From Raillietiella orientalis (Eukaryota), in contig JAYWIR010000008.1 in the NCBI GenBank assembly GCA_036172245.1, positions 4,030,001 to 4,094,000 of the forward strand: a stretch of 64,000 nucleotides of DNA, given 5' to 3'. Positions 7,320 through 58,246 of this stretch are shown here, piece after piece (the stretch's first letter is position 1; every line of letters begins with the position of its first letter). Position numbers and translations under genes: made by a program. The notes beneath the pieces were generated by a model. That model was not told the DNA's origin. It saw only the letters and a list, made by a program, of their open reading frames with translations, and did no database searches.

Positions 7320-8295
7320 TGATTGTTGCGCAAAGTCCTCTCCCTACTGATTGTTGAGAGGGGCCGTTGCCGGTTCTGGTTTCATGCCATTGCACCGACC
7401 TTGCTGCCGCTGCGCCGTCCGTCCAGACGGAGCCTGCTGCCCGGATCCCTTTCGCATGGAAAGGATTCCCTTGGGACAGGAAAGCCCATCCGCATCGCCC
7501 CAATTCCTGCTTCCTCCATGCTGGGTCTCTCAAACGCAGAGGCCGCTTCATAGAGACAGGCCTCGCAATGGTAATGGAATTTTCCCGGATCCACGTTGGC
7601 AGTGAGACCAACCATCGGACTGTGGCGGTGAAGCCGCGCGCACGAGTGAAGGCATCATGGAAACGGGAAGGCCGCGGTTCATACTCGGGAACACAGGAAG
7701 AAGCTACGTGACAAAATTGTGGGTATAAGACAGTGGAGTGGGAGCGATCCAAAAGCTGACCCTACGTAGCAGAGGAGCCACAAAAAGAAAAGGAGAACCT
7801 AAAGGAAAGAAAAGCAGGAGGGAAAACAACAAGGACAGGAAAGAACCCAAAATGGATTTCGATCTTAGGGAAATCCCTTGCAAAGCTCTCCACCACTGGA
7901 CACGGGCGGGAGCATGGACGTTCGGAGTGCGACAGGTGCAGGAAGAAAAAGACCCTCCTGCACCTGCTGTCGAACTGTGCTGCCCTCCGAACTCTTTGGG
8001 ATCGTCTCGCAACGATCCTAGGAATCGCGGCGGGCGGCCCCAGGGACATTTTCAGGTGCCTTTTCGTGCGCAGTGCCGCACTGCTGCTGGCTACGTCGCT
8101 CGCAGTTCCCTGCTGTTTCAGCGGGATCATGGCGGCGTGGAAGGCCAAAGAAGAAACCGAAACGGCAGGGACGCCGCCCATTGGGAGGGGATCTTCCTGA
8201 AGACCGCCTTGTGATGACCTCACCTGGGCGATAGACGAACGGAGCTTGCCGGCATCCTGAACAGGATGCAGAGGACGTCTGGTAGCGTACTGTGA
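7320..8295 (+). pseudogene. Family X paralog A
   Basis: REIPCKALHHW (7867-7899), CAALRTLWDRL (7976-8008), RDIFRCLFVR (~8042-8071), RDAAHWEGIFLKT (8167-8205) and ELAGILNRMQRT (8242-8277), colinear with copy D. Contains frameshifts and in-frame stops. The 5' end is uncertain. Confidence 0.8.
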
Positions 8296-8344
8296 TCTCT
8301 TCCTCGGTCCGCCCCCCCTCCGCGTGTAAAAATTCTCTTCCCCG

Positions 8345-8456
8345 TTTTGGTTGTTTTTGTTTCCCCTTCTCCCACGCTGCCGAAGCGGATCTCGCCACTA
8401 TACGAACCGCTCTTCGGCAGGTTCATCGCACGTGGTAGAACAAAGAGTTCTACCAC
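8345..8456 (+). other. Conserved 3' non-coding module of copy A (pyrimidine tract plus terminal hairpin)
   Basis: Perfect 10-bp stem GTGGTAGAAC-aaaga-GTTCTACCAC (8432-8456). The preceding tract aligns with 20210-20255. Confidence 0.75.
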
Positions 8457-8480
8457 ATTTCTATGTATTTTTGTTATATT

Positions 8481-8491
8481 TATATAATAAA
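8481..8491 (+). promoter_or_regulatory. Overlapping TATA-like box and AATAAA poly(A) signal
   Basis: TATATAATAAA in a short AT island between copy A's 3' hairpin and the next ATG at 8546. Confidence 0.4.
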
Positions 8492-8545
8492 TGCCCCTGC
8501 ATAACCTGGTGCTAGTCATCCTAGCCACACGTTTCTAGTCACACG

Positions 8546-9300
8546 ATGCATCAGGACTGTCTCATATCCAGAGGGCTGTCCTCCTCCCTGCCGATCGCCC
8601 TCTGCGTCCCGAACGAGCGACTGCCCAGCTGCCTCCCCTGCATCTGCCTTGAGGAACAGCTGCAGAGGATTTGGCACGCGAGAAGTCGGAATTCTTCCCC
8701 AGGTAGGGATGTTGCCACGTCTGGGTCTCCCTCTGGGAGCAGGCGGAGGTGGAGGACACCGTGGAGGGGTTCTGTGAGGAGCGCGGGAAACCATGGAGTC
8801 CTGATTCAAGGGGCGTGCCGCTGTGCCTTCTCCTCGCCGAACTCCAGAAAGCAGCATCCCACGGGAAGGTGAGGAAACAAAGAAAAAACAAAACACAAGG
8901 AGGATGGTTGTTTGGGCACAGCTGTCCACGCCCGCAGGGCAAATCCGTCTCGGTATCTCACTGCGTGGCGCCTCGCGGGGGTCTCCCTCCCTTTCTACCA
9001 GGAAGGAGGACGAGGAGATTACGTTCCGGCTCTGTATTTTTTCCCCTCTGGCCTTCCGAGGAGGATGTGATGGATGAGACCGCGTCCACTTTGTCTGCAG
9101 CGGTGAACCAGCGTTGCCATGGGGAACGGTCCCAGCCGAAGAGCAAGGGGGAAGAGATGTGAAACGCACCTCCTTTCGCACCTCCTACGTCTGCTTGTAA
9201 ATCATCCGGGTCCAAGAAAAAGAGGACAGTGTGTCCAGATCACAGGAATGAAGCGGACGCCCGGCAGGGACGGAGGGAGCATAGAATCCAAGGAAGCAGC
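8546..9300 (+). pseudogene. Possible family X paralog directly downstream of copy A
   Basis: Protein-like fragments; GRDVKR (~9150-9170) resembles RDV.KR. An ATG lies ~60 nt after TATATAA. Confidence 0.3.
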
Positions 9301-10006
9301 GCATCCAGAAGATGGGAAGGGAAGGGAGCGAGAGCTCTGCTCCACGACCCATCCTCCGGGAAGTGCCGTTTCCTTGACTGCAGTTTTCCAAGGGAAATAG
9401 CGGTTCGACCAAGCCTCCGGCTGTCCTTCGGGGACGACGCGGTCACTCCTGAAAGCTCCTTAAGGGAGTAGGGAGTTTGTCTTTCGCCACCGCCAGTCGT
9501 CTCCATGATCCTCATCTCCCCTCCTTCTTAGTCCTTACCTGATTTTTCCCTCTATCTTGTCTAGAGGAGTGCGGATCGAATGAGACGTCCCCCCTTCTCA
9601 TATCAGGGAGGGCGTCCGCGCTTTTCTCCAGGTAGGAGATGCAGCCTTTTTTTTTTGTTTGGCTTCGTAGCACAAAGAAGTGGGGAGGAAAAGGGAAGAG
9701 AAACTAGCAAGCAGTCCCCCAAGAAGAAATGGACTGTCCCGCGGGCTTCGGTGCAACGCCCGAAGATCCGACTGGAGTTCGCCCTCTCTAAAAATAGAGC
9801 CATCCTCCGTTCCGTTCGGATGGCCGGTGGCTCGCGCTGCGCATCGACCTTCCGGTGGCCGCAGCTTTGACCGGCTAGCAGTGACCTGATCCGATAGCGA
9901 GAACTGGCTCCCCTGGATGGCGAGGGGCGTCCATTTGGGGGCTCCAGAAGACGCGGAACGGGGGATCAAGAAGGTGCTAGTCTAAGTTCGGAATGTTCTG
10001 AAATTC

Positions 10007-10600
10007 GTGAGCCAGCGGGCGCGCCTCGTGAAATCACTCACTACTTCTGACCTCCTTTCCCTCATCCCTCTCCTTCTGAGCTGCAGCCTTCCCCATCTCT
10101 ATGACCATGCGAGTGCCCACCCCACGTTCTCCTCCTGTAGCATTCGAGAACCTCTTGGCTTTGGTGAGAATCCTGGACGTTCTTTCCCTAGGCAAGGAGT
10201 TTGTCGGGACGTTCGGCGAAAGGCCCAGAGGGGATGGAGGCGGCTTTCGACATCATGTTGACGAAGGGAAGCTGGGAAGGGACCTACGGGAAATCCAGGG
10301 AAGGCCAGCCAGCGCTGGGGCGAGCTCGCGTCTCTCCTGAAGCTTTTAGCAAGGCGACTGAGAGAAGCTGAAACACGGGAGCAGATCAGGGATCAGGATG
10401 CTGGAAGACATGGACTTGACCTCCAGGGCTGCCAAGCTGGTCAACCCCGGACTCGGAGCCTGGGTCTGTTTCCTTCCGTGCTTTTCCTGGACCGCGGGGA
10501 TTACTGCGGACGAAGTTTCCCGGGGACCGCTGTCCCCGTTCGGCACCTCTTCTGTTTTTATGTTGACCTTCTCGGTGTCCTAGGAGCAAGGAGACAACCG
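10007..10600 (+). pseudogene. Family X N-terminal fragment
   Basis: KSLTTSDLLSLIPLLLSCSLPHLY has nucleotide similarity to 11680-11770. HHVDEGKL (10251-10274) resembles EHVDVGNL of copy D. Confidence 0.55.
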
Positions 10601-11639
10601 ACCTGCAGCAAGGGTGCGGAGACGACGCTCCCTGGGAGCAGCGGCACGGGAGCACTTCCGCCGGCACAAACGAAGCGGGTTCGCTCCCAGGAGTGGGTTG
10701 GAGGGGAGAGATGAGGGGTGAGGAGGAGAGGTCAATTCCTTGTGCGAGTTTTCCCCATCTCCACTCCAAGTCCCCAAGGCGTGCGGCTGTGAGCGCAAGA
10801 GGGCGAGAGCGACATCGTCCAGGAAAAGCAGAAAGCTTCATCTTCCCGGAAAGAGAGGGGGCTGGTGAGGAAGGGGAGGGAGAAGCCGAAGGCAGAGGAG
10901 TAGGACGGGAGATGATCGATGAAGGGAGAAGGGAGGAGAGAAAAGGTGGAAGATGACAGGGACGGCTGAGAAGAAGGGGGGGAGGAGGCAATGGCGAAGA
11001 GGAAGATGAGAGATGATGGATGACACGATGGAACTGAAGGAAGAGGAGCGAGATGGTCGCCAAGATGATAACGCTGTGATGGGTGACGACGATTAGGAGA
11101 AGGAATCGGGACTCCTTGGGATGAATGGTGGAGAGAGATGCTCTCCGGCGTTTTCTCCTACTGAAGTGCGCGGGGTATTCCCGTCCCGTCCAACGCCCAT
11201 CCAGTCTCTCCGGCGCTCCATGCGCCATCGAGGCCTCTCCAAGTGAGATGGAAGGGACGATAGAAGAAATCGCTCTCTCGAGTATATTCGCGCTCGCGGC
11301 ACAGGCTAACACCACCGACCCGCCGGTGCTGCGGCTGTCTCGCGCGCGCCCCACCGTCCGCTCGCGAGTTTACTGCGACAGGTAAAAATAGGTTTGATGT
11401 TGATTATAAATTTTTTTTTGGTTGCCAGCACAGGACGCGCTCGGGTCCTCTTTCAGCACCCCGGGTGATGAATAGCGGTGAACTAAGGGGAGGAGTGAGG
11501 CGTCTTGGAGACCATAGGAGCTTGGGTGCCCACGAAAACGCGTCTCTGCCCGCTCTGCCGGGGGCAGTGCCGTTCCTAGAACACTCCATCTGGCCTGTCA
11601 TCTCATCCTGCTCTTCGACATCTGGACCATCAGTGTTTG

Positions 11640-11800
11640 TGTGCGCAGCGACGCGAAAAGGCTGGCTACAGCGAGCCAGCAGCCTCCTTACGAGGTCACC
11701 CACTGCCTCTGATCTCCCTTTCCTCCTGCCACTCCTCTTGAGCTGCAGTCTCCAATACGCCTACGCAAACTGGCCCTGCAACACCCGTCGGAGACCGCGA
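11640..11800 (+). pseudogene. Family X N-terminal fragment
   Basis: RSPTASDLPFLLPLLLSCSLQYAY; about 80 bp is colinear with 10023-10103. Confidence 0.55.
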
Positions 11801-12599
11801 GGCTCGCCAGCTCCCTTCCCTTCCCGCTCCTCCCTCCCCCTCTTTTCCTCCCTTGCCTCCCTGCCACTTCCTCATCATTCCTACGATCCCTGAAAGGCAT
11901 GGCGGCCTCCTTGGCTGAAGGAGTGAAGGAGGGTCCTTGGAACTGCAAACGACGGCGAGACATCGGTCCTCCCAGCTTCCTGAATCAGCTGTGAAATAAG
12001 TTGTGGATGGGGAAGAGGGGGAAGAGGGAAGGTGGGAAGAGGAAGCAACAGGCGTCGGCGGGATCGCTAGGGGAGAGGAGAAAGGGGATTGATCTCGAGG
12101 CGCAAGCGGGGTGGGTGGAACGGTGCCTTTCCTCAGGGTCCGTGACCCAGCGAGGAGCTTAGCGAAGAGTTGCAAGTTTCCTGGATAGGAGACCTCAAGG
12201 AGGTAGTGGGAACTCTCCCTCGATCCTGGACACCGGGGATCCAGAACAGAGCCCCCCTTTGGCAGTCCTCCGCCTTTGCTCCCGCACGAGAGAGTCCTGA
12301 GTCTGCGAAACGAAGGGAGGGACGCTCCTCGATAGAGGAAGGAACCGGGCATAGGAGATAGAAGAAGGAGCCGAGAGCTTCTCCCTGCGCCTGCGGGGGG
12401 GAGGGCAGTCGAGTCCGGCGCTATTCGAACCTAAGAATTCTTCCCGATTGGGGTACGATTCTCTCGCTCATCCCACCGAGAAACGACGCAGGCCAAGTTG
12501 CGGCTTCTGGAACACCTCGAGGGTCCTCGGGAGCCATCAGCAACCTTCCTATCCACCTGGTCTGCGCCCTTCCCTTCCGGGAAAACTTGGCCGATGTTT

Positions 12600-13300
12600 C
12601 GTGGAGTATGGCTGGTCCGAGGAAGCGGCCGTGGGGAGCGGGATCCCCCAGAGGGCTAGGTGATATGAGGGAGGGAGAAGCGTCCTTCCTTTTCGGGAAA
12701 GTAAGGAACAGAGGGGAGAGGGTCCGTCCAACTCACCATGTTTGGGGCGTCCGCAATCTTCTCATCTCCGAATCACGGCCTCCGAGGCGGGTGCTCCGCC
12801 CGGGAGAGTGAGCGGCAAGCGCCACGGGACTTCCTTCCGACAGGACAGACTCGATTCCTGTCTTGGAAGAGAACCGGGGACTTTGGCAGCGAGTCGAGGT
12901 CACCGAAGGCGAACCTTTCGGGCGAGGATAGGGGCGAAGAATCGCTCCACAGTCGGAGGCGGTTTCGAAGGGAGGGTATGGGCTGTACCATTCATGTCCG
13001 GAAACGGGATGCGGTAGAAGGGAGAGGAAGAAACCACCTTACCCCTCTTTTCCTCCCTTGCCTCTCTACCACTTCCTCATCATCACCCCTAGAGACGGGA
13101 AGAATCCCGGAGACCAGGAGGTTCTCTCCAGATCCATGATGGCACCGGGAAATCCGGTGTCACTTGCTGCAAAGGAGTCGGATGCGAGCCGTGGGGACGA
13201 GTCCTCGTTTCAGGTCAGCCCTCGCTCGCTCGTCGGTGCGCCGCCCACCCGCCCGTCATCGGAAGCGTTCTCAAAGGGAAGGATCGGGACGTCCATGCTC
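12600..13300 (-). pseudogene. Family X paralog B
   Basis: On the minus strand: RTDERAR, ENLLVSGILPV, GVRWF (after a frameshift, ~13030-13047) and HLALWGIP (~12640-12665). About 170 bp is colinear at nucleotide level with copy C. Confidence 0.7.
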
Positions 13301-14569
13301 TCTCCGAGCGAAATGGAGGCGGCAACTGCCGCTTCCTCCCGTCATCAGGTGGATCCGATCGGGAGCGTCGGGAGAAAGGTTGCCGCCTCCGGTGGTGCCC
13401 TCTTCCTCGCCCCCGCCAATGGCGCCGCAAAGGGTGAAGGAGGAAGACTGTAGTCCGAATGGATGAAGACTTCTCCCACCTCTGCGAGAACAAGGCGCCC
13501 TACGAAAGGGCCGCAAAATCAGCCACCAGGCAGACGGACGACGCCCTTCGGAACTCTTCCGACGTCTCTGTGACGTCACCGCGGTGAATTCTGAAGGAGG
13601 CTCAGCCTGGCTCATCTTCGCGTTCTCGTCCCTGGGGCTAAGCCCTGGATGCAGGATGGAGGAGACATGACCTGCCGCCTAGGAAGGGACGAGATTTGAG
13701 ATGGGTTCTGGACAATAGCACGAATGACCTGAGGTTCGCGGAGGACGTGCGTGGCGATCTGAGAGGGGAACGCCGTCTCCGATTTCTCCTATGAACCTCA
13801 TCTCCCATCCCCTGTGTTCTTCTGCTGAAGGGGGAAGGAGGAGGAGAGGGTGGGTCCGAGGCATCCCCTTAGCGGCTGATGGCGCTCCTCAGCTCACGAG
13901 GAGGCCTTGAAAGAGGCTCAGGAGGCGTACACGTGCGCGTCGCAAGAGGAATAGCCCGAGGGGTCCTTCGACTCGCTTCCCAGGGCATCCATCATCTTTT
14001 GGACGGGAGGAGGGCGCGTGGGGATCTTTGCAGCCATCCCTCGAGGCCCCGGATGCCCGCGAAAGCCTCGTCCCCTCCCGCATGAATATCTGATCTTCCA
14101 GCAGGGGAGGACGAAGATCAGCTTCCCATCTACCCCATCCACAAGAATGCAAGGTCATCTCGGGGGACTGGAGGGGACGAGCAGGAGCCTCGGTGGGAAA
14201 ACCAGCTTCCGCTTCGTTTCGGGCCACCCGGAGGAGAATCCCGGACCTTTTGACCCTACAGAGGGGACGAAAGGGTGAGGAAGGGAGCATCCACTTCCGA
14301 CGGGAGCTCAGGGTACCTTCGCGATCCCCCACATTGCGGCAGCACTCTGAGGCTCTCTCTCCTGTAGCCCTGGAGAGCCGGATAGTGGACGCTGCTCCTC
14401 CCTGAGGAGACGCAGGGACCGTTCATCCCGGGGGGAGCAAGGAGGAACTCCGGGAGCGAAGGGTTCCGCTTCCTGGACTCTCTGAGAGAGCCGCCGTGTT
14501 CTCAGTCCCACAGAGACACGGCAGCTGCTGTGGCGCTCCCTCGGTCGCTTTCACGGATTGCCCGAGGCC

Positions 14570-15500
14570 CCATGAAGAGGCGGTCGTCCTCTCGCGCACG
14601 TGCGTACGCACTTGCGGGCGGGCGGGCTGCGCACTGACGAGCGAGCGAGGGCTGAACGGAATCGACAACTTGTCCCCACGGCTCACATCCGCCTCTCTTG
14701 CAGAGGGTGGCGCCGGAGTTCCGGGAGCCAACGTGGAGCTGGAGAGAACCTCCTGGTCTCCGAGAGTCCTCTCGTTTCTGGGGAAGAATCGACAAGGCAA
14801 GTGTCGGGAGTGCGGTGGTGTCGACCGCATGCGAGATCGCCCAGATTTCTCGACGGCCTCCGCTCGCCCGCCCTCGCGTAGGGACCTTCTCTTCGTGTGT
14901 GGCGGTGGCCTCCTCGCGTCCGCCGTGCAGCCACGTCGCCACTTTCCAAGGCAACGGTCGGGGAAAGAGGAAGAGGCACGAAGATGGGAGTGTGGGGAGA
15001 TGCAGGGACCTTCCGATGGTTCCTGAGGGAAATGAGAGGGAGGTTGTTCGGTGTTCCCAGGGGCAGCGCAGGACGCCTCGCTCCCTGCCATCCCACTCTC
15101 CGTTTCCTGGAATGCTACTCCTCCCTCCTTACTCCCGAGAGCTGTTCCGACCACGACACAGCCAGGGTTGCTGGGACGTGCAAGGTGCCTCTTGCACATC
15201 CCAGCAACCGGCCCACCGCGGGCGGGCGCTCTTCCTGCGGTCTCCTCCGCCCTCTGCGTTGCAGCAAGAGTGCCTGCAGCGCCAGCCGGCAGAGCTCACT
15301 CACCAGCGCGTCCCCTCTGGAGAATCCAGCAAGCGCCGAAGGTTCCTGGGATTCTTTGGCTCCCGTCCGCAGCTTCCCACACACGAGCGTTTGCCGCCGC
15401 CACCGCCAGTCGGGGAAAGCTTCCGGCGACCAAGAATAAAGCGGAGGCCGCTTTATTATCTTTTGCATAGACGGTTCCTCCTGCAATGCCCTGGAGCGTA
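14570..15500 (+). pseudogene. Family X paralog C
   Basis: GGLRTDERAR, ENLLVS and GVRWC (ORF 14600-14881). The stretch gagatgcagggaccttccgatggttcc resembles copy D's EFQDLQWY segment. It is the inverted partner of copy B. Confidence 0.7.
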
Positions 15501-15849
15501 GCGAGCTCTCCAGAGGCCGTTTTCGAAAAATTTGGAAACCAATGGCGCTTTCCAGAGCCAACAGCGCCAGTCTCCTAGGCGCTTCTCCGCTTCGGAGCCG
15601 TCCGTGCCGTGGGAAGCGCAGCCAAGATACGCAGGCGGGTCATGAGAGAGGTCTTACTTCTCCCTGATCCGGTGACCCGAAACTTTTTTTCATAGGGTGG
15701 CTCAGCACCCCCTTCTCAGGAGACCACCTGATCGACCCCCACGGGATACTGCTTCCGCTCTCCTTGAGACTCCGGCAGCGCGCGCTTCGCCTTTAGCTGG
15801 ACCAGATGCGAAAACCGAGGGCGGCTCCCCCCCCCCCTCACCGATGCAA

Positions 15850-16200
15850 CTACCTCAAGGGTCATCCTCTGTCAAGCAGACGCCTGGAGGGACCGTGAAT
15901 TTGGCGTCTCTGCTGGATCCCTGCTTCGGCAGTGGCTCTGACCGGATGGCGCAGCGAACCCTCGCCCGCTGCCATGAGCGATGCCCGCTAGACGGGAGGG
16001 TTCAGCCAACTCTCCCGGAACCTCAAGGTGCCTCCTGGAACTTCTGGTCTTCTTCCGGGAGTTCTAGGAATTTCCACACGCGAAGCACTTCAAACCTGGA
16101 AGTGCTTCATGACCGCTTTGTTCCCAACCAGACCGACCCCTCCCCTCCTTTCTCCGAGCAGGATTTTCCGAGTCGTAAGATGCAAAGGAGCCGCACTTAA
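15850..16200 (+). pseudogene. Possible family X C-terminal fragment
   Basis: GTSGLLPG, TREALQTWKCFMTA and RKMQRS (across frames) resemble GSGSLLPS, RDAMHSTTIFMRV and RMQ[RK]T. Confidence 0.35.
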
Positions 16201-18899: not shown

Positions 18900-20151
18900 C
18901 GGTCCCTCCAAGAATCGCAACCTGCGACGCCGCATCTCCGTGTGGCGGCTGAGGCGATCACTGCGCTTCCTTTCTTTCTCTCTCCCTCCTCCTTCCTCTT
19001 CCCTGCCTCCACCTTCGGGGCACCTTGCGAGAGGAAGAGGATGGGGCTCGCGCAGCCACGACATCGCCAGCTCTTTGGAACTTGGCTTCGTAGCTTCCAT
19101 CTCCAGAGCCATCCCGAGCACGTGGACGTAGGTAACCTCCGCACCGAGAGCGGGGAGAGGCAGCCTGTCCGTGACCCCGATGCCTCCCCTTCCCTCGGGG
19201 TCGGAAGCGCCGCTCACTGCCCTCAAACGGACCACAGAGTGATCTCAGAACTGCATCGTCATCCGCGTCCATCTGACACCGCGCCTCCGGCCGAACGCCT
19301 CATCTCCGGGATCCTGCCCGCTCGGGCAGACCCGAGCGACGCTCCTCAACAGTCTGTAGGGGCGGCCCCCGAAAGGGGCGTCAACCAGTCCTATGGTACG
19401 CGATGGTACGGCTCCCTTTTTGCAACCGGAGGATACCCCGAAGAGCTCCTTGGTTCCTGGAAGGCATCCCGGAGGGTCGACCTCCAGTTCCAGCAGGTCG
19501 ACGGGGGCATCCGGCTTCCATCAGAGCCCGCACCAGGGAAGTTGAAGTGACCATCTCCGGAAAGAGAAGAAGACTGGGCTAGTGGATGACGGTCCAGCTC
19601 AACGACTCTGCGACCCCGAGTGCTCGACCTCATGGACTTTTGCACTGGGACGAGCTATTATGAATTCCAAGACTTGCAGTGGTACCCCCCGTCGGTGCTC
19701 ATGAACACCCACATCCTCCTTATGAAATGGCAGGAGTCGGCGATGCTGCTGCTGTACTGGGGTCTCCCATGCAACGTCCGCCGGCATCTGTGGACACAGG
19801 AGGAGGTGTCGACCCAAAATTTCCCCACCTCCTAGTGGACTGTGCTGCCCTTCGACCCCTTTGGGCACGCTTTGCCGCTACCCTTGGAACCCCCGGAGGC
19901 AACTTCAGAGACGTCTGAAAGCGTCTCTTCCTGCGCGACGCCCTCACGGCGGCCGCATCCCCAGTAGCACTTTGCTGCCCACGCGGCGGGACCGTGGCTG
20001 CATGGAGCAGCGCCAGGACGAAAAGGACACCATCTATTTTTCTGTCCTCTTCATGAGGACAGAGTCAAGATGGCCCCATCTGGGAGTCGTGAAACAGGAA
20101 CTTGCCGGCATCCTTACAAGGATGCAGAAGACGCCCTCCGGCACACGATGA
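18900..20151 (+). pseudogene. Family X paralog D (most complete copy; unidentified protein with frameshifts and stops)
   Basis: Ordered motifs HVDVGNL (19119-19139), LISGILP (~19299-19319), GTRWY (19395-19409), MLLLYWGLPCNVRRH (19743-19787), CAALRPLWARF (19841-19873), KDTIYFSVLFMRT (20023-20061) and ELAGILTRMQKT (20098-20133), then TGA at 20149-20151. Each motif recurs in other copies. The 5' boundary is approximate. Confidence 0.8.
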
Positions 20152-20194
20152 TCCCTTCCCGAAGACCCTCATTTTTGGACTGTATTTTTTTATG

Positions 20195-20326
20195 TTTTGT
20201 TCTTTTGCTTTTTGTTTGTCTCCCCTTCCCCTGTGCTGCAGAGGCGGATCCCGCTGTTCTGCTTGCCGGTTCCCGGCAAGTTCCTTGTATTCATAAGTAA
20301 CGTGGCGGGATCAAACGTCCTGCCAC
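20195..20326 (+). other. Conserved 3' non-coding module of copy D (two hairpins)
   Basis: CTTGCCGG-ttc-CCGGCAAG (20262-20280) and GTGGCGGGAT-caaac-GTCCTGCCAC (20302-20326). Confidence 0.75.
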
Positions 20327-20387
20327 AGACATGTAGGTTTAGAAAGAATTGCTCCGACGTGACCAGGTGTCAACCAATGCCACCCAA

Positions 20388-20516
20388 ATAGGCCAATCAG
20401 CATCATCCTGTGGGCTAGGGAACTCGAAACCCACGACACGCTCGTCTCTCGCTGTTGATCTTTCCCCGGGCGGGATTCGAACCCGCGCCGCTTGGCGCCA
20501 TGCGCTTAGGCCACAG
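20388..20516 (-). mobile_element. tRNA-derived short element (SINE-like or pol III-type), copy 1
   Basis: Minus strand: A-box-like TGGCCTAAGCG, T-arm GCGGGTTCGAATCCCGC, and a second GGGTTTCGAGTTCCC motif. Colinear with 58122-58246. Confidence 0.65.
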
Positions 20517-21149: not shown

Positions 21150-21500
21150 GCGACCTCATGAAGGGGTCGGAGCTCGAGTTCCCCGATTCCGCGCTCTCCT
21201 TTCTTCGAGCTCTCCCTACTGCCAACCTCGAGGAAGCATCTCAATCTCCGGCGGGACGCGCCGGATGCGGACTCACCCCGGGACGCCCTCGAGAAGATGC
21301 ACATCGGAGTTTCCCTTCTTCCCCTGGATCCTCCCCATCCTCTTCCGGGAGGAGGAAGTGAGCACCCACTGTCACTGCAGGTTGTATCGCGGCTCCTCCT
21401 GGAGGCTCCTGGCGAACAGGCTGCGACGCTGATGGCCCCTTGGTCCGCCGAAGATGGCGCAGAGGTCGCCTGCAGCGCCTTTCAGCAATGTCCCTCCCTC
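21150..21500 (+). pseudogene. Possible family X fragment
   Basis: REEEVST resembles QEEVST of copy D and is followed by a gctcctcctgg segment shared with ~43960. Confidence 0.25.
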
Positions 21501-22639: not shown

Positions 22640-22956
22640 ACGAAATGGCTCATGGCGTGGTGCTATCTTGGGGACGGTGCGCTCCCCTAATGGTGGGCCT
22701 TCCTCTCACCTTCACAGCCCCGAAAGGGGAACGCAGGAAGCCCGAGTCCGGGGAGAAAGGGAGAAGGAGGAAGCCCCTGGGAGTCCTGTCGGTGCAAGTG
22801 AGGTTGCCTCAGGGAGAGGGCCACTCTCAGTGCGCAGGGAAGCTGAATCTCCCTCGGAGGTCCCCTCATCCTCTCTTCCCTTCCTTCCTCCTCCGCTTCC
22901 CTGACGCGGCCCTCACGGATCCGCTGTCTGCTTTTGCAGGGAGAGAGTGGAAGTGA
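22640..22956 (+). pseudogene. Possible family X fragment
   Basis: VLSWGRC and FLLRFPDAALT; gccctcacgg is shared with copy D. Confidence 0.25.
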
Positions 22957-25389
22957 AGGAGGGCTGCCCGCACGCGCTGGGAAGAGCCCGGGCGAGTTCG
23001 CCTTTCCTCCTCCGGCCAGCGTAAAAATCTCGCAGCGACTCAGGAACAATCCTGCTGGGTGGGAAAGGGAGAGGGGGGAGGGAGCGTGGCGGCGTTGGAG
23101 CGGACTCCTGTAAAGACTTTGAGCGCTCATCTCCTTGGTCTTAGTCCTTCCCCACCTTCCGTTTTTGCTTGCTTCCTCCTCCTCCTCTTTATACTCTTCC
23201 CGGCCGCCTCCTCCCCTCGCCCCTCTCTCTGACCCCTGGAGCGGTCATCATAAGGGATTCCTCTGGAGGGTGGATGGCTCCTGAGATTGGCTCCGAACGC
23301 AGGAAGACTCTCGACGAGGGCGGCGTCGGGACTGGAAGAGGAGATCAGCAGCCGCCCAGAGCCTCTCGCACCATGAGGAGTGGTCGCCACGGATACGGGG
23401 AGGGGAGCTCAATCATCCTGCTTCAGGCTTAACGCAAAGATTCTTCTCCTCTACGTTTTCCGTGAGCGTAAGGAGAATTCGCTTGTGGAGAGTAGGAGAG
23501 GGAAGAGGGAGAGGAGAAGGCAAGGCAGGGAGAGAAGAACCCCTAGGAAGGGGCTGCTCGCCTCCTCTTTCCGCTCAAACGCTCGGGCTCATGGCCTGGA
23601 ATTTTGGGGACCCTTCGACCGACGGGAGGAAGCGGGGAGCAGGAGGTAGGCAGTGGCAAGTGTCCTGCATCCGGAGGGTGCCTCGTGAAACCTCTCTCTC
23701 GGGGAGAAGACGAGAAGGAGGGACAAGACGAATCCACGCCCACCCCTTTCCTTCTTCTCGATCTTCTATCCCTTCCGACTGCGCGAAGCAGGAAGGGAGG
23801 GAGGAGCATTCCCCGTGGGCGTGGTGTGAGGGCGGGGCGTGGGAAAAAGGGAGAAAGGACCGACCTTTTAGATGCCGCCGCTGGTCGCAAAAGACTGCGC
23901 CGGAGCTCCAATGCGGCACGCGTTCCCGCGCCCCAGAAGCGAGTGAGAACTCACCGTCCCATCGGCATGGAAACGCCTCTGTCCCTCCCCCGAAAACCCG
24001 ACGGCGGAGGCAGCGGAAGAGGAGGAGGAGACCGTCGACAGAGCCGTGAGCTGTGAGAGAGGGGGAACCCGGAGGGCGACGGTTTCTGAGGTGGAGGAAG
24101 AAGCCCTCGGGATGGTCACGACAGGCGTGCGTGACCCCTCCGAGGCGCGCTTGGATGGCAGTCGAAGGTCGCGGCTTCCTTGCGGCCTCAGAGGGGCCAG
24201 CGACGACGACGACGATGACGGAGGAATTCTCCTCTTTCTTTTCCTCTTTCCCCGTATTCCCCCCCCCCCCCCATACACACAGCACCACGAACTCCCTCCT
24301 CTCTTCCCTTCCCTATTCCAAGGGCGAGAGTGCGCTCAGCGACCACCCGAATCGGGTCTTCTCCTTTGAGGCCGCACAGAGGTCTGCGCCTCTCCTACCC
24401 ACTCCCAGAGGGGAGTGGGTAGGCACTCGTCCTTCCACTCACTCACTCCCCTCCTTCCTCCTTTTCTTGTTTTCTCTCTCTCCATCCTCCCCCGCACCTC
24501 TCCTCCTTGCCGCCAGCCTTCCGGGACTCCGCCGTGCCGGACGCTCCAGGAGGAGTGGAAGGATGCCTCGCGCAGCGAGGGGTGCGCTCGCCGCCGTCGT
24601 CTTTCCCGCTCAGGAATGCGCGCCCCCCGCTGCTCGCCCTCCCGCCTCACGGCGAGAAGCTGCACGGGAATGAATCATCGCCTCCGGGCCTCGCGACCTT
24701 GCTCCACCGCCACCTCCTCCGCCTCCCTTCCTCTTCCTCTTGTTTCGCCGCAGCTGCTGACTTCGTTGCCCCTGCTGCCGCCTCTGTCGGCTCTGTTGCC
24801 GAGGGCTTTCCTTCCCGCCATCAGTGCTGCCTCCAGCGGGGTTTCTGCTGCCGCTCCTGATTTGTTGTTGTTGTTCGTGGACGAGAACAATAATGAAGTT
24901 GTATCTGGCGTGGTGCTGCTGCTTGAGGAGTTGTTGCTGCGGAGGTTGCTGCTCCTTCAGGTTCCATGGACACATTGCTGTGCATCACTTTGGCCTTGTC
25001 TCTGCTGCCGCTGCATGGTGCAATGTTTCTCAGAGAGCGTCATCTTCCCGAAGGCAGCGCGGAGCTCTCCGAGCGCTCCTCGTGCCGTTTGCGCCCCTTT
25101 CCTGGCCTCCGACTCCAAGGTGAGGCGCAGAGTGACCGAGAGGACACCGGACGCAACAGTCCTCCCTCTCCCCCCCTTCTGAGAGCACTTCCCTTCCGTT
25201 GGTTTCCTTCCTTCTCCCAACCCCCTCTCCCCTTTCTCCGCGTTCTGCTTGCCGCTTCCATCGCCAGAGGCTCTGCAGCAGGCACGCGCGCCATCGGAAC
25301 TCCGATCGCGGCTGTTGCGGACGTGGTCAGTCGCGAGCAGCAGCCCACAAGCGGGTAGTCACTTTTTGCGTGGTAGCAGGAGTGCAGGT

Positions 25390-25930
25390 GCTCAGGTCGA
25401 GAACTCGCGAGAGTTCCTCCTGGAAGATTGTTCGAGGGCATCTCTGAAGAAGTCCTTTAGGAGATGGAGGGGACCGCTGCTTTCCCGCATCCCCTCCTCT
25501 CCCCCCCGGTCGCAGCGGCAGACGCTTCCCGCGAAAGTTCCGACCATCTGCTGACCTTCCCTAGGATGGAAGGGGAAAGAGAACGGAGGCGGAATAAGGG
25601 AAATGGATGGATGCTCCATGTCCCTTGCCGACGAGCATAAGCAGACCAACTGGGCAGCGGCAGTCGTTCGAAGCGAGCGTCCCCACAGAAACGGGTAACC
25701 TTGCCCATCGAGGGACGGTTGGTCTGCCTCTTGAGCTCTCACTTACCACAGCATCCGCCCGACCTTGGGGATTATTTTGAGCGGGAGACTCAGCGGAGCT
25801 GGTGGCCGTCTATCCATCCCCGTCCTTGAGGTACGGTCCAAAGTCTGCAGTGGTTGCTCCCAGATGCTTTTAAGCCATGAAACGACTTTCCGGGAAGAGT
25901 GAACCATACTCCCTTTCCACTGCCTCTCCA
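25390..25930 (-). pseudogene. Probable family X paralog
   Basis: On the minus strand GVWFTLP, YPFLWGR and LLKDFFRDAL occur in the expected order (compare GVRWFLP, LYWGL and KRLFLRDAL). Confidence 0.45.
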
Positions 25931-26479
25931 GAAGACGCGGAAGCTCTCTCTTGGAAGGGAGAGGGAGCTCTCGGCTGCCCTTCTTATTTTCCCGAGATTC
26001 CCTTCAGGAGGCCTCACCCGGGCAGACTGGTCTCCAGGGGCACCCCGCCTCCACCTTCACCTTGCTGCGGCGGAGTGAGGGGTGATGATCAGGGAGAGAG
26101 CAGGAAAGCAGGAAGCGTCCCAAGTCCATCCCTAAATCCACCCTTTTCTCTTAGTCACATGAAGGACTTCGAGGGCAAAAGAAGACGAAGGGTCTGAGTC
26201 TGGGCACCTTAGCAACCAAAGAACATTTCTTCCTCGAGGAGGAGGAGTCCTACTCCTCTGAGCTGGGAGCGTTGGGGACCTTCCATCAGCCCTGCAGAGA
26301 TTCCTTCTCTTCCTGGAAACAGTCTTTCAGGAGTCCAGGAGTTCCTTCTTGGAGAGGCTTTGGGACACTCCTGATGGAATCTGCTGCTTCCTCCTACAAG
26401 AGTCGACTCCCAAAGTCCCTTACAAGGGACTGGATTACTTGTCCCTTCCTTCCCCTATTCTTCCCTTCCTTCCTCCCTC

Positions 26480-27470
26480 TCGGCGCTTGTGACCAGTGCA
26501 GCCGTGATCCAACTGCCTATGAAGTGATCAGCCTCTTGTCTCCCATTGCTCCAGACATATGTACCTCTCTGCTCCCACCTCCTATCCTCCCGAGCTCGGA
26601 ACGCATGCTGCACTCAACTGCACGCTCATCCACATCTCCATCTCGTCTCCCATGGACCAGCGGAACATCCCCGTCTCCTCAAGGAAGCGACCTCTCTGGG
26701 GGCACGGACTCGTGGGACCGCCTGGAGATGCCAGGCACTGAGGGGATCCCACCAGCGAACTACGAGGTCGACCGAGCTACATCACGGAGACAATGAACAC
26801 TCCTCTTCCTTTTCCTCTTCCAGGTAACGTTTCTCCGGAAACCGTAGGAACCTCTTCCTCCCTGAGTCGGGGGTCCACGTTCCTCCACTGTGAGCATCTC
26901 GCGGAAGCTTCGAAAGCTGGGTCAGGTGCCTCTCCTGACCCGGAGATGTTCCACACGAGGATCCTGATCCGATCTTCTTCTCCAGGGACAAGAAAAGGTC
27001 AGGCAGAGGGCGAGATCGCTCTAGGATCCGCCCTACTAGCGGCTCAGCCCGAGAGATGTGCCGGGAAAAGGTAACCCTGCACAGATACGCTTCCTTCGTA
27101 CCGCTGTGCTTCCCTGGAAGGGGAAGAGGGAATCTCACAACGGCAGCAGCTGGACCCTTAAGGACATCCGGCCTCTACCCGTTTCTCTCCGTCCTCCTCC
27201 CCTTGAGCTTTGGCCGGCTCCCCTGTGTCAAGATAGCCCATAGGCACAAAGGCAAGACTGGAACCTTCCTGAGGAGAATAAGTTGCAGGAAGAGAGCGAG
27301 AGATGTCCTGCGCCTCTGCCTGCGCGAAGCAGCAGAGCGAAACGAGAATCGCTCTCTTCAGCGGCCGGGAGACGACGAACTCTTCCTGCAAAGGGGACGG
27401 GGATGGAAACAGCACTTAAGGAGTACAGCGAGTCATCCTGGAGGGAAAGGAGAAGGGGATGCGAGACCAC
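26480..27470 (+). pseudogene. Family X paralog F
   Basis: LLPLSFGRLPCVKIAHRH (27194-27247) and RDVLRLCLREAA (~27299-27334) match the WGLPC..RH and RDV.KRLFLRDA motifs. LHRYASFVPL matches the copy at ~5170. Confidence 0.6.
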
Positions 27471-27879
27471 CTGGACCTCAGCGCCTCCCCTCGGCTCGCG
27501 AGCGGCGGAGCTGCAGCTGCCTTCGTGAAGACGAACAAGGTCTGTCCTGCTTTGTTCGCGGATTCTAGGCGCGTGGAGGCGCGGACCAAGTCATCCGGGC
27601 GCGCTGACCTCTCACCCCGAGCGTCCTCGGGGTCCTCGTCGCATGCCCTTCCTCTGTCTGGTGCCAAGTCGCGGCCGACTTTTTCTGCTCTCGCAGACCT
27701 CAGACCGAAGAGTCGAGAACTTGCCCACAGCGCGCCAGGAGCGCCAGACCAGCGGCTGCACTCCTTGCTTTCCTTATCTTCCCCGAAAACCACGAATACG
27801 TCTCCTCTGACAACTCAGAGACCCCCGTTCCTCTCCTCTCCTTTGTTTCTTCGCTCCCCTCTTTCCGAACTCCCGCTGC

Positions 27880-28550
27880 CTCTTCCAGTTAGGCCATCGC
27901 TGAATGGAGGTCTCCTGCACCGTGTCTCTATCATTCGACCACAGATCTTCGCTCACGCGCCCTTTAGTTGCGATTGGTAACTTCCTCCTTCTCGTTCCTT
28001 CTCATCGTCTCGAACTCATAGAAGGGAGGGTGAGGAGTCAGGAAACGTATCCACTGCGGAGCACGTCTCCTGACCGGCACCCCGGGAGAGAGAGACCGAA
28101 AGCTCCCCCATTCCCATTGCGCGGAAAGCCAAAGGATGATAGCATCCACAGCACACCCTCTTCCTGCCCCCCCGCCCTCACAATGTTCCAGACTTCCGCA
28201 AAAGGCATCCATCCAGAGTTTTCCCTCTCGACCATCCCTGGAGCACTGGAAAGTGGCAGCGACTCCGCCTTTCTGGAGGACATCTCTCCCTGGAAGTCTG
28301 GATTCTGCCTGAGTTGCACAGGAAGGGAAGGAATTCAGCATGGAGATCGAACGCTGGTCCGAGCTGGGCTGAGCCTCTAAGGTCGCGAATCGCGGAATGG
28401 GCAGGGTCCAGCAGCAGTGCGACCCCGACTAGTGCTTCAGAGCTTCCCAGCCCCACAGTCGCTTCGTACCTGGTGCAAGCATGCCACCTTGGAAAGGAGG
28501 AAGAGCCTGAAGGCAGACCCCTGTGTCACGGTGGACCTTCGCCGCTTTCT
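27880..28550 (-). pseudogene. Possible family X paralog
   Basis: On the minus strand GDVLRSGY and NDRDTV...QRWP resemble RDV.R and [DN]x[KR]DT...RWP. Confidence 0.3.
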
Positions 28551-31500
28551 CACTGAGGGATGCGGAGACCGGAAATCATCCACAACAAAGAGCCAACTCG
28601 CGCTTGGCTCCCGAAAAGGCCACCTGGATCCTCTCCCATCATTCCCATTCTTCTCAGGTCGAAACAGGAAACCTCCACGGTTTCTAGGGGTTGAACCCCA
28701 GGCCTTCCCGAGGGTGCATTGCTCTTGTTCCTCGGTACCCTCCGAGTCCCTCAGGGAAGGCCACAAATTTCTTTCCTTTCTCTGATTCAGGAAGCTTCCC
28801 GTCGGCTGGAGCAGCTCTTCCTGAAAGACGCCCCTTTCTCCTCTCGACACGTCCTGCATTCCCTGCGTTCCAGAGTGCCCGCTCAGCCCTCGAAACAGCT
28901 GCAAATGACGAAGTCACAACCGAGCGCTCTGGAGGGAAATTCCAGGATAAAAGATTGGGATCTGGTGACGCACCTTTGGAAACCTTCGCGCTCCCATTGG
29001 GCTCCTCGTTGGCGGCCGCGTGGCTGCGGTCTTGGAGTGGCGCAGGCTGCGCCACTGCTCCGGTCTCGAGACGTTGATCTTCCCGCACGTCGGAACCGTT
29101 CTCTGAAACCGGGTATTACAGCTAGCGGGGAGGCAGGGGATCCAGGAGTCACCAGGGCAACCACCTGCCAGAACTGACACCCTCAAACGGACCAGACTTC
29201 GGTGATGAGAAGCAGCTCCCACACCCGGACGCTCCCCCGGCGAGGAGGCCTGCAGGGACTCATCAAGGCGTCCCCTGTAACTTCCCTCCTAGGACAATAT
29301 TTGAGATTCCCCGGTGAAGTCTTCCTGATTTCTCTCTTCCTCCTGCTCCCTCTCCACATCACCCCTATTCCCTTTTTTCCGGTCCGCGTGTGCCGAAATC
29401 ACTCCACTCCATTCTCCCCCGCGAAGATCTCCTGGCTGCTTCTTCTCCCCTCCTCCCCCAGAGAGAGGCAGATACGGAAGCGAAGAGAAAGAGTTCTCCG
29501 CTGCCGGCCCTTCTCCTAGCCCTCCGTCTGCTTCTTCCCCCTCCTCCTGTGGAAATCCTCCGCAAGCGGAACCTCCAGGAAGGTTCTCGGCTGAAAGAAG
29601 ATCCAGACGCCACTTCCCAGCATTTTCCTCTCTCTGGCAGCGCGGGAGTTCAGGAAATCCTCTCTTCCCCCTCACCGCTATCCCCAATACACGTCCCGGA
29701 GCCCTCCAGATCCCCGCCAAGGAGGGTCGACCGATGCTGGAGAAGGAAGGCTGCTCCCTGAGCTCCGTTGGGGCAGTGCCTCTCCGTTCCCGAGACCGTC
29801 TGGTGGAGGAGGAGAAAAAGAAGAGGAGGGAGAGGTTCTGAACGCACGCGGAAGTGATGTGCGTCTTGTCCTCCCGGAGAGCGCTTGCTTCCCTCGTTTC
29901 CATGGAGAGGGCTCCGACCAGAAGCTGTGCAGAGATTTTCGGCCTCGAGGAGGGCCGCGACGCTGTAAGGCTCCAGTCAGGAAGGGAAGAGGAGGAAATG
30001 TGGTGTCTCCCGGAAGAAGCGGACGTTTCGCAAGGAAAGATACGGAAGGAAGGCAAAAGGCCGGTCTTCTGGAGCGAATCAGCGTACGCACGGCAGCTCC
30101 AGGAACCGCAGGAACAGCCCCTTCCCTTCTTCCGTAGCACAGGGGACACATGGAGGCCGACATGAAGGGGGGGAAAGGAGGCATGGCAGGTAAGTACTCT
30201 CAGAATGGAATAGAGGCAACTCTGTGAACCCGAAGCGACGGAGGGATAGACAGAGGAACCATCCTTGAATCCCAAAAAGCCCACTCTCGCGAGGACCTAC
30301 GCTGCCTATGCCACCTTCCCTTCCTCTGGACTCGGAAGCGACATCAGGGACCGCACTCCCTCCCTCCCGAGGCCCTCTGGAGCGGGAAACGTTCCCGGAT
30401 CCGGGGACTCACAGCTCCTCCTCCCCAATCTGACACGCACGCGGGGCGTGGGTGGGTTGGAGTGGAGAGCGAGGACGCGAGTTTTCGCCTCACGTAGCCG
30501 CCACCCCACGCTCCCGTGCGCCAACACGAATTCTCTTTCGCCTGAGCTCCTCCGTTCATTCTCCGCGCGCCCACTGGTCCCGCGCCCTCCACAAGTGGCG
30601 ACAACGACTTGGCTGTTGTTCCGCTACCTCCACATCCTCACTCATCACCCTTCCCCCCCTCCTTTCCCCCCCCCCCTCCTGTCTTCATGTTCCGCCGTTG
30701 TGCTTTTCGCGATGCTCATTTCCGCTTGGCTCGCCACGGAGGCTGCCTCTTTCGGCGGCACCGGTCAACCGTAGCTGCAGTAGCGTTTTCCCCTGCGTTT
30801 TCGCCGCTTGTGTTCCCGGATCGCCTTAGGAAATTGCCGGGGATTTCCGCAGGAAAACTCCTCTCCTTTAATCCTCCTCCTCCTCCACCGTGGTGGCTTC
30901 ACCGTTGGTGGTCTCCTGCAGAGGCGCAGAGGAAGTAGCCGGTGGCTCACGTGCAGCGCGGTTCCCGACTCCTTCCCTTCCTTGTTAGCGCGCGCGCTTG
31001 CGATCCTCCAGCTTCCCTACAACCCTCATCCCACCTCGTCTGCCGCTCTCGGCCTCCAGACGGACGTCTTCTTGCCTTTCCAGCCCTCGGGACGGCAGTG
31101 GATCTTCGTCTGATCCCTATTCCCTTTCTACAGGGAGGAAACGTTGACTACGGGGGGTCGGTCCTCTTCGCAGCTGCAGCGCAGTGCGGACGCTGCCTCC
31201 GGAGCTGCGAGCACACGCCGAGGGTGTCTCGCTGTGGCATGTCCCGGGGCAGACGTCCTGGGTCCCTTGTGCTGGGAGACTCGTTCTTACACAAACGTGG
31301 TCGCGCGCGCGCGCGCCTCCCCCTCAGTATGGAGTGGAGGAGGCGCTCGCCGCGCGCCTGGCGGGGAAGGACGGCCGATCGCCTCGCAGCGGAGGCGCGA
31401 CGACGGCGAGGTGCACCCCGGCGGGTGCGGCTCCACGAGTCCACGAGCACCACCGCACCCTCGCGGCAGTCTCGCAGGAGGACCGGGAGCGATGGCGGTG

Positions 31501-31657
31501 GTGAAAGAGAGCTAGAAGGAGGGCAAAATTCGAAGGGGCTCTCCTCTCTGTGACACCGCCGAGAGGAGGACCGAGCAGGTGCGGGACTCAGGCCTGCAGC
31601 GGCCTCCGCGGCGGAGGGACGATGTTCGTCGAAACGAAAAGCAAGAAGCTCACGGCA

Positions 31658-31785
31658 GTGGTAGGGCTGCACCTCCTGCCGCATTCCCATGCTCAAGGGA
31701 AGGTGCCAGGATGCCGGCACGCTGGCGACCGATGTCCACCTGGGGAACAGAGGGAAGGTGAACTGGAAAAAATAAAATCAAATAG
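31658..31785 (-). other. Conserved 3' non-coding module of copy H
   Basis: Minus-strand T tract, GTGCCGG-catc-CTGGCAC (31703-31720), and a degenerate second stem (31658-31682) at about the same ~20-nt spacing as in copy D. Confidence 0.6.
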
Positions 31786-32450
31786 GTAAACGGGATGAGT
31801 CAGGAAGGGACCGCTGACTTTTTCGCTGCCTTTTCGCTGCGACCCTCATGAAGATGGTCGTGGAATGCATGGCGTCCCGGTAGGTCAGATCTGTTTGAAT
31901 GGTGCTCCGGGGCGCCACTACTCCGCGAAGGCAGCAAAGAGCCGCTGCCGATGAGGCGAGGAGCAGCGAGAGTATCTCCCACGAAGAGGCTCTTGACAGT
32001 GCTCTTGGCATCGCCCACCGGAGGCCGGAGGACCGTAGAGAAACGTTCCCATAGAGACCGGAGTGCAGCACATTTCGCTATCGGACTCGGGAAGGCTTCC
32101 ACCTCATCCAACTGCCGTGGGTTCGCAGTCCCGCTCCCCCATGGTCCGGCGATGCCGGTGAGCGTTGCAAGAGAGACCCCAGTGCAGCGCCAGCAGCAGC
32201 TCCCACTCCGGTGGATCTGTCCGTTGGCGGTTGTGGACCTTCCCTGGGAGGAAGGGAAGAATCACCCAGGATCCCTTCCAGGAGAAGTAGTCCTTCCAGT
32301 GGGGCACCCGAAGGACTGAACTTCCCGCGAGCTTCCGTATCCGTAGGAACCGATTCGATCCTTCCATTCCTTCTTGGTCTTCAGGGTGAGCCGATCCTCC
32401 CCCCCCCCCTCCCCCGTCACCGCCGTCGCCCCTTTCCGAATCGGCGGCTT
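31780..32450 (-). pseudogene. Family X paralog H (C-terminal half)
   Basis: On the minus strand: LLLALHWGLSCNAHRH (~32152-32209), CAALRSLWERF (32040-32072), KSLFVGDTL, GSLLPSR and RDAMHSTTIFMRV (31841-31879). Order and spacing match copies A and D. Confidence 0.8.
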
Positions 32451-58121: not shown

Positions 58122-58246
58122 AGAGGTCTCCGCGGATGGCACCGAGCGTCGCGGCTTCGAATCCCGCCCGAAGAAGGATCGACGCCGAGAAATGGGTGCG
58201 CCATGGGTTTCGAGTTCCCCCCGTAGGACGACGCTCGTTGGCCTGT
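58122..58246 (+). mobile_element. tRNA-derived short element, copy 2
   Basis: cgcggcttcgaatcccgcccg...gatc...tgggtttcgagttccc...ttggcct aligns almost gap-free with the reverse complement of 20388-20516. Confidence 0.65.

Follow-up and report, generated by a model that had tools for sequence, protein, structure and literature searches.

Can dead, related DNA segments still carry the imprint of selection on a protein and, if so, on what did that selection act? This question is raised by a 64,000-nt stretch of the genome of Raillietiella orientalis (assembly GCA_036172245.1, contig JAYWIR010000008.1, positions 4,030,001-4,094,000, forward strand), referred to here in its entirety as the window. 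The initial annotation described a set of paralogs, lettered A to H, that were thought to have diverged as distinct functional genes under protein-level selection, to have been integrated as an already diversified array and then to have lost constraint together.

Three related copies and their setting

The window holds only three related stretches, A, D and H, with pairwise DNA identities of about 60%. Profile searches at the DNA and protein level, blastn at sensitive settings and an all-against-all blastp of ORF pieces (20 aa or longer) detected no further member of the proposed A-to-H set in the window. The segment that had been called B (13111, minus strand) belongs to an inverted repeat at 13087-14783, unrelated to the three copies, and is situated in its left arm (13087-13255), which is 82% complementary to the right arm (14615-14783). 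An SGILP motif common to D (19305) and B (13111, minus strand) had been offered as a synonymous comparison between paralogs. This is a 33-nt local match equalled or bettered by 12.6% of random window segments, in a window whose six-frame translation contains 12,949 recurring pentapeptides, and it is a chance resemblance.

Each copy consists of about 110 codons of reading frame, a TGA and an untranslated tail of about 260 nt that bears hairpins and has no poly(A). Copy A occupies 7868-8456 on the plus strand, with an approximate 5' limit (7850-7872), as delimited by nhmmer (7864-8411), blastn (7961-8424 against D, 7930-8207 against H) and a three-way alignment; its tail boundary was carried on to the third hairpin. 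Copy D (about 19745-20326, plus strand) has the same architecture and an uncertain 5' limit, and was placed by nhmmer (19755-20271), blastn, alignment and translation. Copy H (31654-32196, minus strand) is the most decayed; it was placed by nhmmer (32184-31713), alignment, translation and folding, and its tail matches the tail model at 31786-31654 (E 0.0028). The TGA falls in one aligned column in all three translated copies (8198-8200, plus strand, in A; 20054-20056 in D; 31848-31846 in H), suggesting that it is the ancestral stop. Copy A has an open frame of 146 codons, which 5' of the homology traverses purine-rich filler.

The setting of the copies is GC-rich, eukaryotic-looking DNA with no sign of genes. 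The long ORFs of the window are flat across GC1/2/3 and rich in R, P and S. Pfam searches found no protein domain in 425 ORF pieces across the window (121 + 105 + 117 + 82); sub-threshold matches to Peptidase_S21, Gly-zipper, POM121, GRF zinc ribbon, GxDLY and RepB_primase lay far under the cut-offs and are ascribed to chance. Searches of the window with Rfam and for tRNAs likewise returned nothing.

Constraint in one reading frame, and its loss

The observation behind the selection proposal is in part sound. In the CAALRxLWxR block (A, 7976-8005, plus strand, where it reads CAALRTLWDR; D, 19841-19870, plus strand; H, 32072-32043, minus strand), all three ten-codon strings are exactly as first quoted, and at all eight conserved residues the differences are confined to third positions. 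The DNA pattern of this block occurs three times in the window; 0.28 occurrences would be expected, and none of 100 shuffles reached three. The CAALR at 42370, a fourth instance, has no relation to the copies.

The comparison was extended to the whole alignable frame, 77-82 codons, ending at 8197 in A. Differences per codon position (first/second/third) are.44/.34/.49 for A-D,.47/.27/.46 for A-H and.46/.34/.60 for D-H. The corresponding pN/pS values are.69 (bootstrap 95% interval.51-.94),.67 (.50-.93) and.55 (.40-.74), while in the other two frames pN/pS is.88-1.20, with intervals that include 1. The excess of synonymous over non-synonymous change is thus restricted to the CAALR frame, and codon periodicity is absent from the tail. 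Across the alignable frame, the protein-level signal is real but modest. Judged from these codon comparisons, A, D and H appear to have diverged partly under protein-level constraint over about 80 codons, and to this extent the core of the original proposal holds.

Its other half, the loss of function, holds as well. In copy D, alignment and translation show a premature TGA at 19916-19918, a 29-nt deletion that takes out the C-x2-C of a Cys/His motif described below, and a further 10-nt deletion. Copy H has two 1-nt frame shifts and has lost the His and first Cys pair of the same motif; about 60 nt are deleted from it, the first tail hairpin included, and its third hairpin is degenerate. The three copies are now dead. 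Could they instead be intact genes, with stops and frame shifts introduced by the assembly? This is barely credible: the lesions extend to 29-, 10- and about 60-nt deletions and to substituted motif residues, unlike the 1-nt homopolymer errors that polishing mends, and divergence within the frame, at 40%, equals that of the untranslated tail.

A structured tail

Conservation between the copies continues past the stop, where up to three hairpins can be folded. Hairpin 1, a 7-bp stem with a 4-nt loop, lies at 8252-8269 in A and, by folding and pair comparison with A, at 20108-20125 in D (both plus strand). All seven of its pairs are identical between A and D, and three of the four loop letters differ.

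This hairpin coincides with the ELAGIL block, which had been read as a second case of third-position change. The gag/gaa and ctg/ctt letters are indeed present. However, the block is in phase 1, against phase 2 for the CAALR frame and the TGA common to A and D, so ELAGIL lies past the stop, in another frame and inside the hairpin. Two of the three motifs put forward in support of selection, ELAGIL and SGILP, are therefore not coding evidence. More generally, changes that look synonymous can mimic codon-level selection when they fall within a conserved hairpin.

Hairpin 3 has a 10-bp stem and a 5-nt loop in both A (8432-8456; fold z -4.79) and D (20302-20326; z -3.62), both on the plus strand, and in each case none of 200 shuffles folds as well. 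Between the two there are two compensatory changes, two one-sided compatible changes and no broken pair, a comparison of two sequences, H being degenerate here. Pairing is found in 34 of 34 cells, against 29-53% with the partners slid; the covariation score from two sequences is reached by 115 of 500 shuffles. In A, hairpin 3 is likely the 3' end module, and local homology scores for the sequence 3' of it fall inside the shuffled range.

A strong hairpin 2 is confined to D. There (20261-20281, plus strand) it has a 9-bp stem and a fold z of -2.78, with 2 of 200 shuffles as good; its weak counterpart in A (8404-8424, plus strand; z -0.28) is in a different register and is equalled by 66 of 200 shuffles. 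None of the copies shows a tail that combines AATAAA with a hairpin.

A zinc-knuckle motif and its affinities

Upstream of the stop, copy A contains a CCHC motif of the form C-x2-C-x7-H-x4-C (7928-7978, plus strand). A six-frame search of the window for C-x(1-3)-C-x(7-8)-H-x4-C retrieves this motif alone, where a simulated window yields 0.09 matches on average, and one of the three copies has it intact. The spacing resembles that of the zinc knuckle at the end of L1-type ORF2, C-x3-C-x7-H-x4-C.

Further hints come from a language-model protein atlas, in which zf-RVT (PF13966) clusters make up 19 of 30 matches for the 146-aa ORF of A and 26 of 30 for a trimmed 116-aa peptide (top score 0.94, 178 of 256 features in common); the recognition values, 2272 and 2228, fall under the tool's mark of 2300, below which scores count as weak evidence. 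Pfam, PF13966 included, gave no family at E <= 10 for any of four peptides from A, D and H. With phmmer, four matches emerged from 1.84 billion representative proteins, all to internally repetitive proteins aligned in 4-7 stretches and all judged spurious. A database search for longer homologous proteins found none, PDB searches did not retrieve L1 ORF2p, and by alignment no homology to a LINE emerged. Among PDB matches, cytochrome bo3 subunit III (phmmer, E 0.002) was rejected as chance because there is no COX3 match in Pfam, none in the 1.84-billion library and no oxidase gene adjacent; methylmalonyl-CoA mutase (profile search, E 0.024) was also rejected. AlphaFold2, run on the A peptide with a five-row alignment, returned a mean pLDDT of 59.3 and a pTM of 0.27, a model of insufficient quality for fold comparison.

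In metagenomes, a scan with the hairpin pattern gave no matches. One locus came up with the peptide pattern. Its contig looks bacterial and contains an integrase-like ORF, the match lies outside a sensible frame, and the locus was discarded.

These results bear on the reading in the initial annotation, in which the copies were once-functional host or acquired genes for a small Cys/His protein, diversified as an array that later lost constraint throughout. A pN/pS below 1 in one frame, the still-open 146-codon frame of A and the spacing of the copies, about 11.9 and 12.2 kb, would all suit such an array. However, there are only three copies, in mixed orientation (A and D on the plus strand, H inverted), and the units have no other conserved block: sensitive blastn and blastp of ORF pieces found no collinear similarity in their flanks outside a common block of about 550 nt. 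Conservation also runs on for about 260 nt beyond the stop, with hairpins. The databases searched yielded no cellular-gene homolog, the open frame upstream of the homology in A passes through filler, and the character of the window's long ORFs and the lack of a domain in all 425 pieces count further against genes. Host or acquired genes are thus highly unlikely, and the integrated array falls with its missing members and unlinked surroundings.

Origin of the copies

What, then, was under selection? The most likely units are active retrotransposon lineages rather than distinct host genes. We consider it probable that one L1/Tx1-like LINE family, or a short element borrowing that LINE's tail, gave rise to A, D and H as old, tail-only copies.

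Under this explanation, the copies would carry the C-terminal zinc-knuckle region of ORF2, its final 110 or so codons, and would derive from different lineages or subfamilies of one element. During the active life of those lineages, selection would have maintained both the protein and the tail hairpins, which would account for the synonymous excess and the compensatory stem changes between lineages. Each inserted copy would have been dead on arrival and, evolving neutrally, would since have accrued substitutions, stops and indels. The reverse transcriptase of the element may, by analogy with stringent-type LINEs, recognise one or more hairpins in the tail of its own RNA, starting target-primed reverse transcription. 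A pattern of selection followed by decay is ordinary LINE evolution.

No RVT or Exo_endo_phos match was found among the 425 ORF pieces, in a scan for upstream domains that took in pieces down to 35 aa in the 4.3 kb 5' of each copy, and the copies are therefore described as tail-only. The missing reverse transcriptase and endonuclease are expected if the copies are 5'-truncated, as they probably are, so a LINE origin stays compatible with this result. As candidate target-site duplications, the top-scoring direct repeats do not exceed chance (p about.06 for A,.29 for D and.94 for H); divergence of about 40% would erode such repeats.

In the alignment, the starting points of the three copies span no more than about 150 nt, with A beginning later than D and H. 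Random 5' truncation would not predict this, and it counts against truncation. It lends some support to a different reading, in which the unit is a non-autonomous retroposon, short at about 600 nt, derived from and mobilised via a LINE tail, with a fossil piece of ORF2; the observed lengths would then be full length. The absence of a reverse transcriptase or endonuclease domain upstream of any copy and the conserved, structured tail would also fit. However, a frame-specific synonymous excess is unexpected in a non-coding passenger, unless inherited from LINE ancestors, and the 5' ends do not coincide, three copies being too few to fix one. This reading is unlikely. A variant, in which the 600-nt unit is a complete retroposon with a zinc-knuckle frame under selection of its own and a three-hairpin tail, is very improbable indeed; if true, the unit would be a protein-coding, SINE-like parasite of an L1-like LINE without poly(A).

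Returning to copies of an L1/Tx1-like LINE family, the consequence for annotation is that the three stretches are best masked as old repeats derived from a LINE, rather than recorded as gene-family pseudogenes or an acquired array, with little import beyond this. A by-product is a candidate tail-recognition module, with an invariant 7-bp hairpin, a covarying 10-bp hairpin and no poly(A), from a LINE family without relatives in the databases searched.

Comparison with known systems

The ORF2 of L1/Tx1-type elements encodes an APE endonuclease, a reverse transcriptase and a C-terminal Cys/His zinc-binding region (zf-RVT, PF13966). The copies differ in having no PF13966 HMM match, no reverse transcriptase or endonuclease, no poly(A) and no relative in the databases searched. 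They resemble these elements in their Cys/His knuckle late in the frame (in copy A), with a stop about 70 codons on and a 3' untranslated tail. They are also short, tail-only and dead, and for copy A most neighbours in the language-model atlas are zf-RVT clusters, at recognition values that count as weak evidence.

Parallels for the tail are found among stringent-type LINEs. Eel UnaL2 and zebrafish ZfL2-1 and ZfL2-2 are described as LINEs of this type, whose 3' stem-loop is recognised by their own ORF2 protein (PMC4176376), and a stringent L1 lineage is reported in monocots (PMC3472496). Those LINEs have one terminal stem-loop and short repeats, whereas three hairpins are present here, known from two sequences and with a putative role in recognition by reverse transcriptase. 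As in stringent-type LINEs, the tail hairpins of A and D are conserved, with the stem kept while the loop or inner pairs vary between lineages, and there is no poly(A).

The manner of decay also has precedents. Dead-on-arrival evolution of non-LTR elements is reportedly the subject of work by Petrov and Hartl on Helena in Drosophila. In such evolution, active lineages are constrained and terminal copies are neutral (PMC2861651). Unlike in those studies, the tree here, with three copies, has no internal branch, so the two kinds of branch are inseparable. Like dead-on-arrival elements, A, D and H combine a synonymous excess between copies with disabling lesions.

Three related copies in apparently gene-poor DNA

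The initial annotation had quoted three ten-codon strings encoding the peptide block CAALRxLW, and a codon-by-codon check found all of them exactly as written, in the related stretches labelled A (7976-8005, plus strand), D (19841-19870, plus strand) and H (32072-32043, minus strand). The corresponding DNA pattern occurs three times in the window against 0.28 expected, a count reached in 0/100 shuffles. Each string lies within a longer homologous stretch, at about 7868-8456 (copy A, plus strand), about 19745-20326 (copy D, plus strand) and about 32196-31654 (copy H, minus strand), with pairwise DNA identity of roughly 60%.

Five approaches were used to search the window for further copies: a DNA profile built from A, D and H, a sensitive self-comparison of the window by blastn, all-vs-all blastp of ORF pieces at two size limits (≥40 aa and ≥20 aa), a protein profile, and a profile of the untranslated tail that follows the shared stop. 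None found a fourth copy at E <0.05, and the proposed paralog set running from 'A to H' is therefore absent. Its member 'B' (13111, minus strand) was rejected as a copy, as it sits in an arm of an unrelated inverted repeat. The three copies (7976, 19841, 32072) are separated by 11,865 and 12,231 nt, an even spacing taken as coincidence because no similarity was found between the intervening stretches.

The inverted repeat (13087-13255 versus 14615-14783) has 169-nt arms that are 82% complementary and 1359 nt apart, with protein-level similarity running on to about 13294 and 14576, and may represent DNA transposon ends or a foldback element. One copy of a 50-nt direct repeat (90%; 11829-11878 and 13034-13083) abuts its left arm, while the other lies 1.2 kb upstream. 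Another repeat, of about 120-155 nt and 76% identity, pairs 20390-20512 with 58125-58244 in inverted orientation, its first copy starting only about 65 nt past the end of copy D.

Across the window, no Pfam domain scored above cut-off in 425 ORF pieces, and no Rfam family or tRNA was found. ORFs of 400-530 codons are probably not genes, as their GC is flat across the three codon positions and their composition is rich in R, P and S. Overall, the window resembles GC-rich DNA that is poor in genes (GC about 0.52-0.70), and the whole 64 kb seems to be without recognisable genes.

Anatomy and decay of the copies

The open frame of copy A spans 7760-8197, contains a Cys/His motif (C-x2-C-x7-H-x4-C; 7928-7978, plus strand) and the CAALRxLW block, and closes with a TGA at 8198-8200 (plus strand). 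A purine-rich low-complexity run (7760-7865) adjoins the copy upstream and holds this frame open for ~35 codons more, so the ORF looks longer than the homologous element. Copy D is in this frame too, and a TGA (20054-20056, plus strand) occupies the matching column of the alignment, as it does in H once two 1-nt shifts are corrected. D carries a premature TGA (19916-19918), a 29-nt deletion that takes out C-x2-C and a 10-nt deletion; H has lost the His and first Cys pair, with a deletion of about 60 nt. Assembly error is a rival reading of these stops and indels, but it cannot account for losses 10 to 60 nt long.

The copies remain homologous over about 260 nt past the common stop, with three hairpins numbered along this tail. 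Hairpin 1, with a 7-bp stem, is formed by the block read earlier as the peptide ELAGIL with synonymous gag/gaa and ctg/ctt differences. This block (A 8242, D 20098) lies 3' of the stop and in phase 1, versus phase 2 for the frame and stop in both copies. Between A and D, 7/7 stem pairs are identical and 3/4 loop letters differ. Of the two quoted differences, neither of them a synonymous change of codon, ctg/ctt falls on the first letter of the loop and gag/gaa sits 8 nt before the stem. SGILP, also offered as codon evidence, is a 33-nt local match equalled or beaten by 12.6% of random segments, in a window whose six-frame translation holds 12,949 recurring pentapeptides.

Hairpin 3 has a 10-bp stem and a 5-nt loop in both A (8432-8456, plus strand; fold z -4.79) and D (20302-20326, plus strand; fold z -3.62), folding that was matched by 0/200 shuffles. 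Six of its pairs are unchanged between the two copies, two show one-sided compatible changes and two have changed on both sides. In the hairpin pairing check, 34/34 cells pair, against 29-53% with partners slid; the covariation shuffle control (115/500) is weak with two sequences only. Hairpin 2 is convincing in D only, and copy H has lost hairpin 1 and retains a degenerate hairpin 3. A module combining AATAAA with a hairpin is seen in neither A nor D.

Constraint on the reading frame

In a DNA-based alignment guided by no frame, differences are fewest at second codon positions of the frame running through the Cys/His motif and CAALRxLW. Across positions 1/2/3 they are.44/.34/.49 for A-D (chi-square p.16),.47/.27/.46 for A-H (p.010) and.46/.34/.60 for D-H (p.005), and the untranslated tail has no codon periodicity (p.58-.75). 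Nei-Gojobori dN/dS for the three pairs is 0.54, 0.53 and 0.29 in this frame versus 0.83-1.34 in the other two. Likewise, pN/pS in frame is.69 for A-D (bootstrap 95% interval.51-.94),.67 for A-H (.50-.93) and.55 for D-H (.40-.74), while every interval in the other two frames includes 1.

When the distances over 77 codons are split three ways, on a three-sequence tree with no internal branch, the ratio comes to.97 (.57-1.8) on the branch to A,.56 (.33-.92) on that to D and.54 (.35-.85) on that to H. Divergence of the copies is therefore part protein-level constrained and part neutral. Total divergence in frame is.40-.47, not below the.39 of the A-D tail.

Identity of the encoded peptide

When the window is translated in all six frames, the Cys/His pattern matches once, in copy A, against 0.09 expected per simulated window. 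Its spacing is like that of the cysteine-rich motif at the C terminus of L1-type ORF2. In a language-model search of a protein atlas, zf-RVT (PF13966) clusters made up 19/30 matches for A's 146-aa ORF and 26/30 for a trimmed 116-aa peptide (top score 0.94, 178 shared features); recognition values fell below the tool's 2300 mark for both queries, making this placement moderate evidence at best.

Searches based on alignment found no Pfam match even at E <= 10, no match in a word-indexed search of longer proteins, no real match in two metagenome scans, and only four matches by phmmer among 1.84 billion representative proteins, all internally repetitive. PDB searches returned chance-level matches, L1 ORF2p not among them. 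One such match, between the peptide of copy A and the N-terminal portion of cytochrome bo3 ubiquinol oxidase subunit III (phmmer, E 0.002, 21.5 bits; 7892-8101, residues 15-84 of the 7850-8197 translation), was judged to be chance because Pfam and the large protein library give no support.

Origin of the copies and comparison with known elements

Upstream of all three copies, no reverse transcriptase or endonuclease was found, even among ORF pieces down to 35 aa. The best reading is that A, D and H are tail-only copies, all three belonging to one LINE family. Its weak points are the small sample, the fact that no LINE matches the copies at the alignment level, their similar 5' ends, and the absence of demonstrable target-site duplications around them. 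The main rival is a short non-autonomous element.

The initial annotation had proposed that paralogs diverged under selection on the protein before decaying together, as an integrated gene array. That proposal is partly supported: partly constrained divergence followed by decay is borne out, while decay of a host gene array is an unlikely origin. Under the LINE reading, the source lineages, when still active, would have diverged under selection on both ORF2 and the tail RNA, with decay setting in for each copy once it had inserted. Such a history fits the standard dead-on-arrival picture (PMC2861651). The tails of A, D and H resemble the stem-loop tails of stringent LINEs (PMC4176376). The kind of element is ordinary and the family is undescribed.
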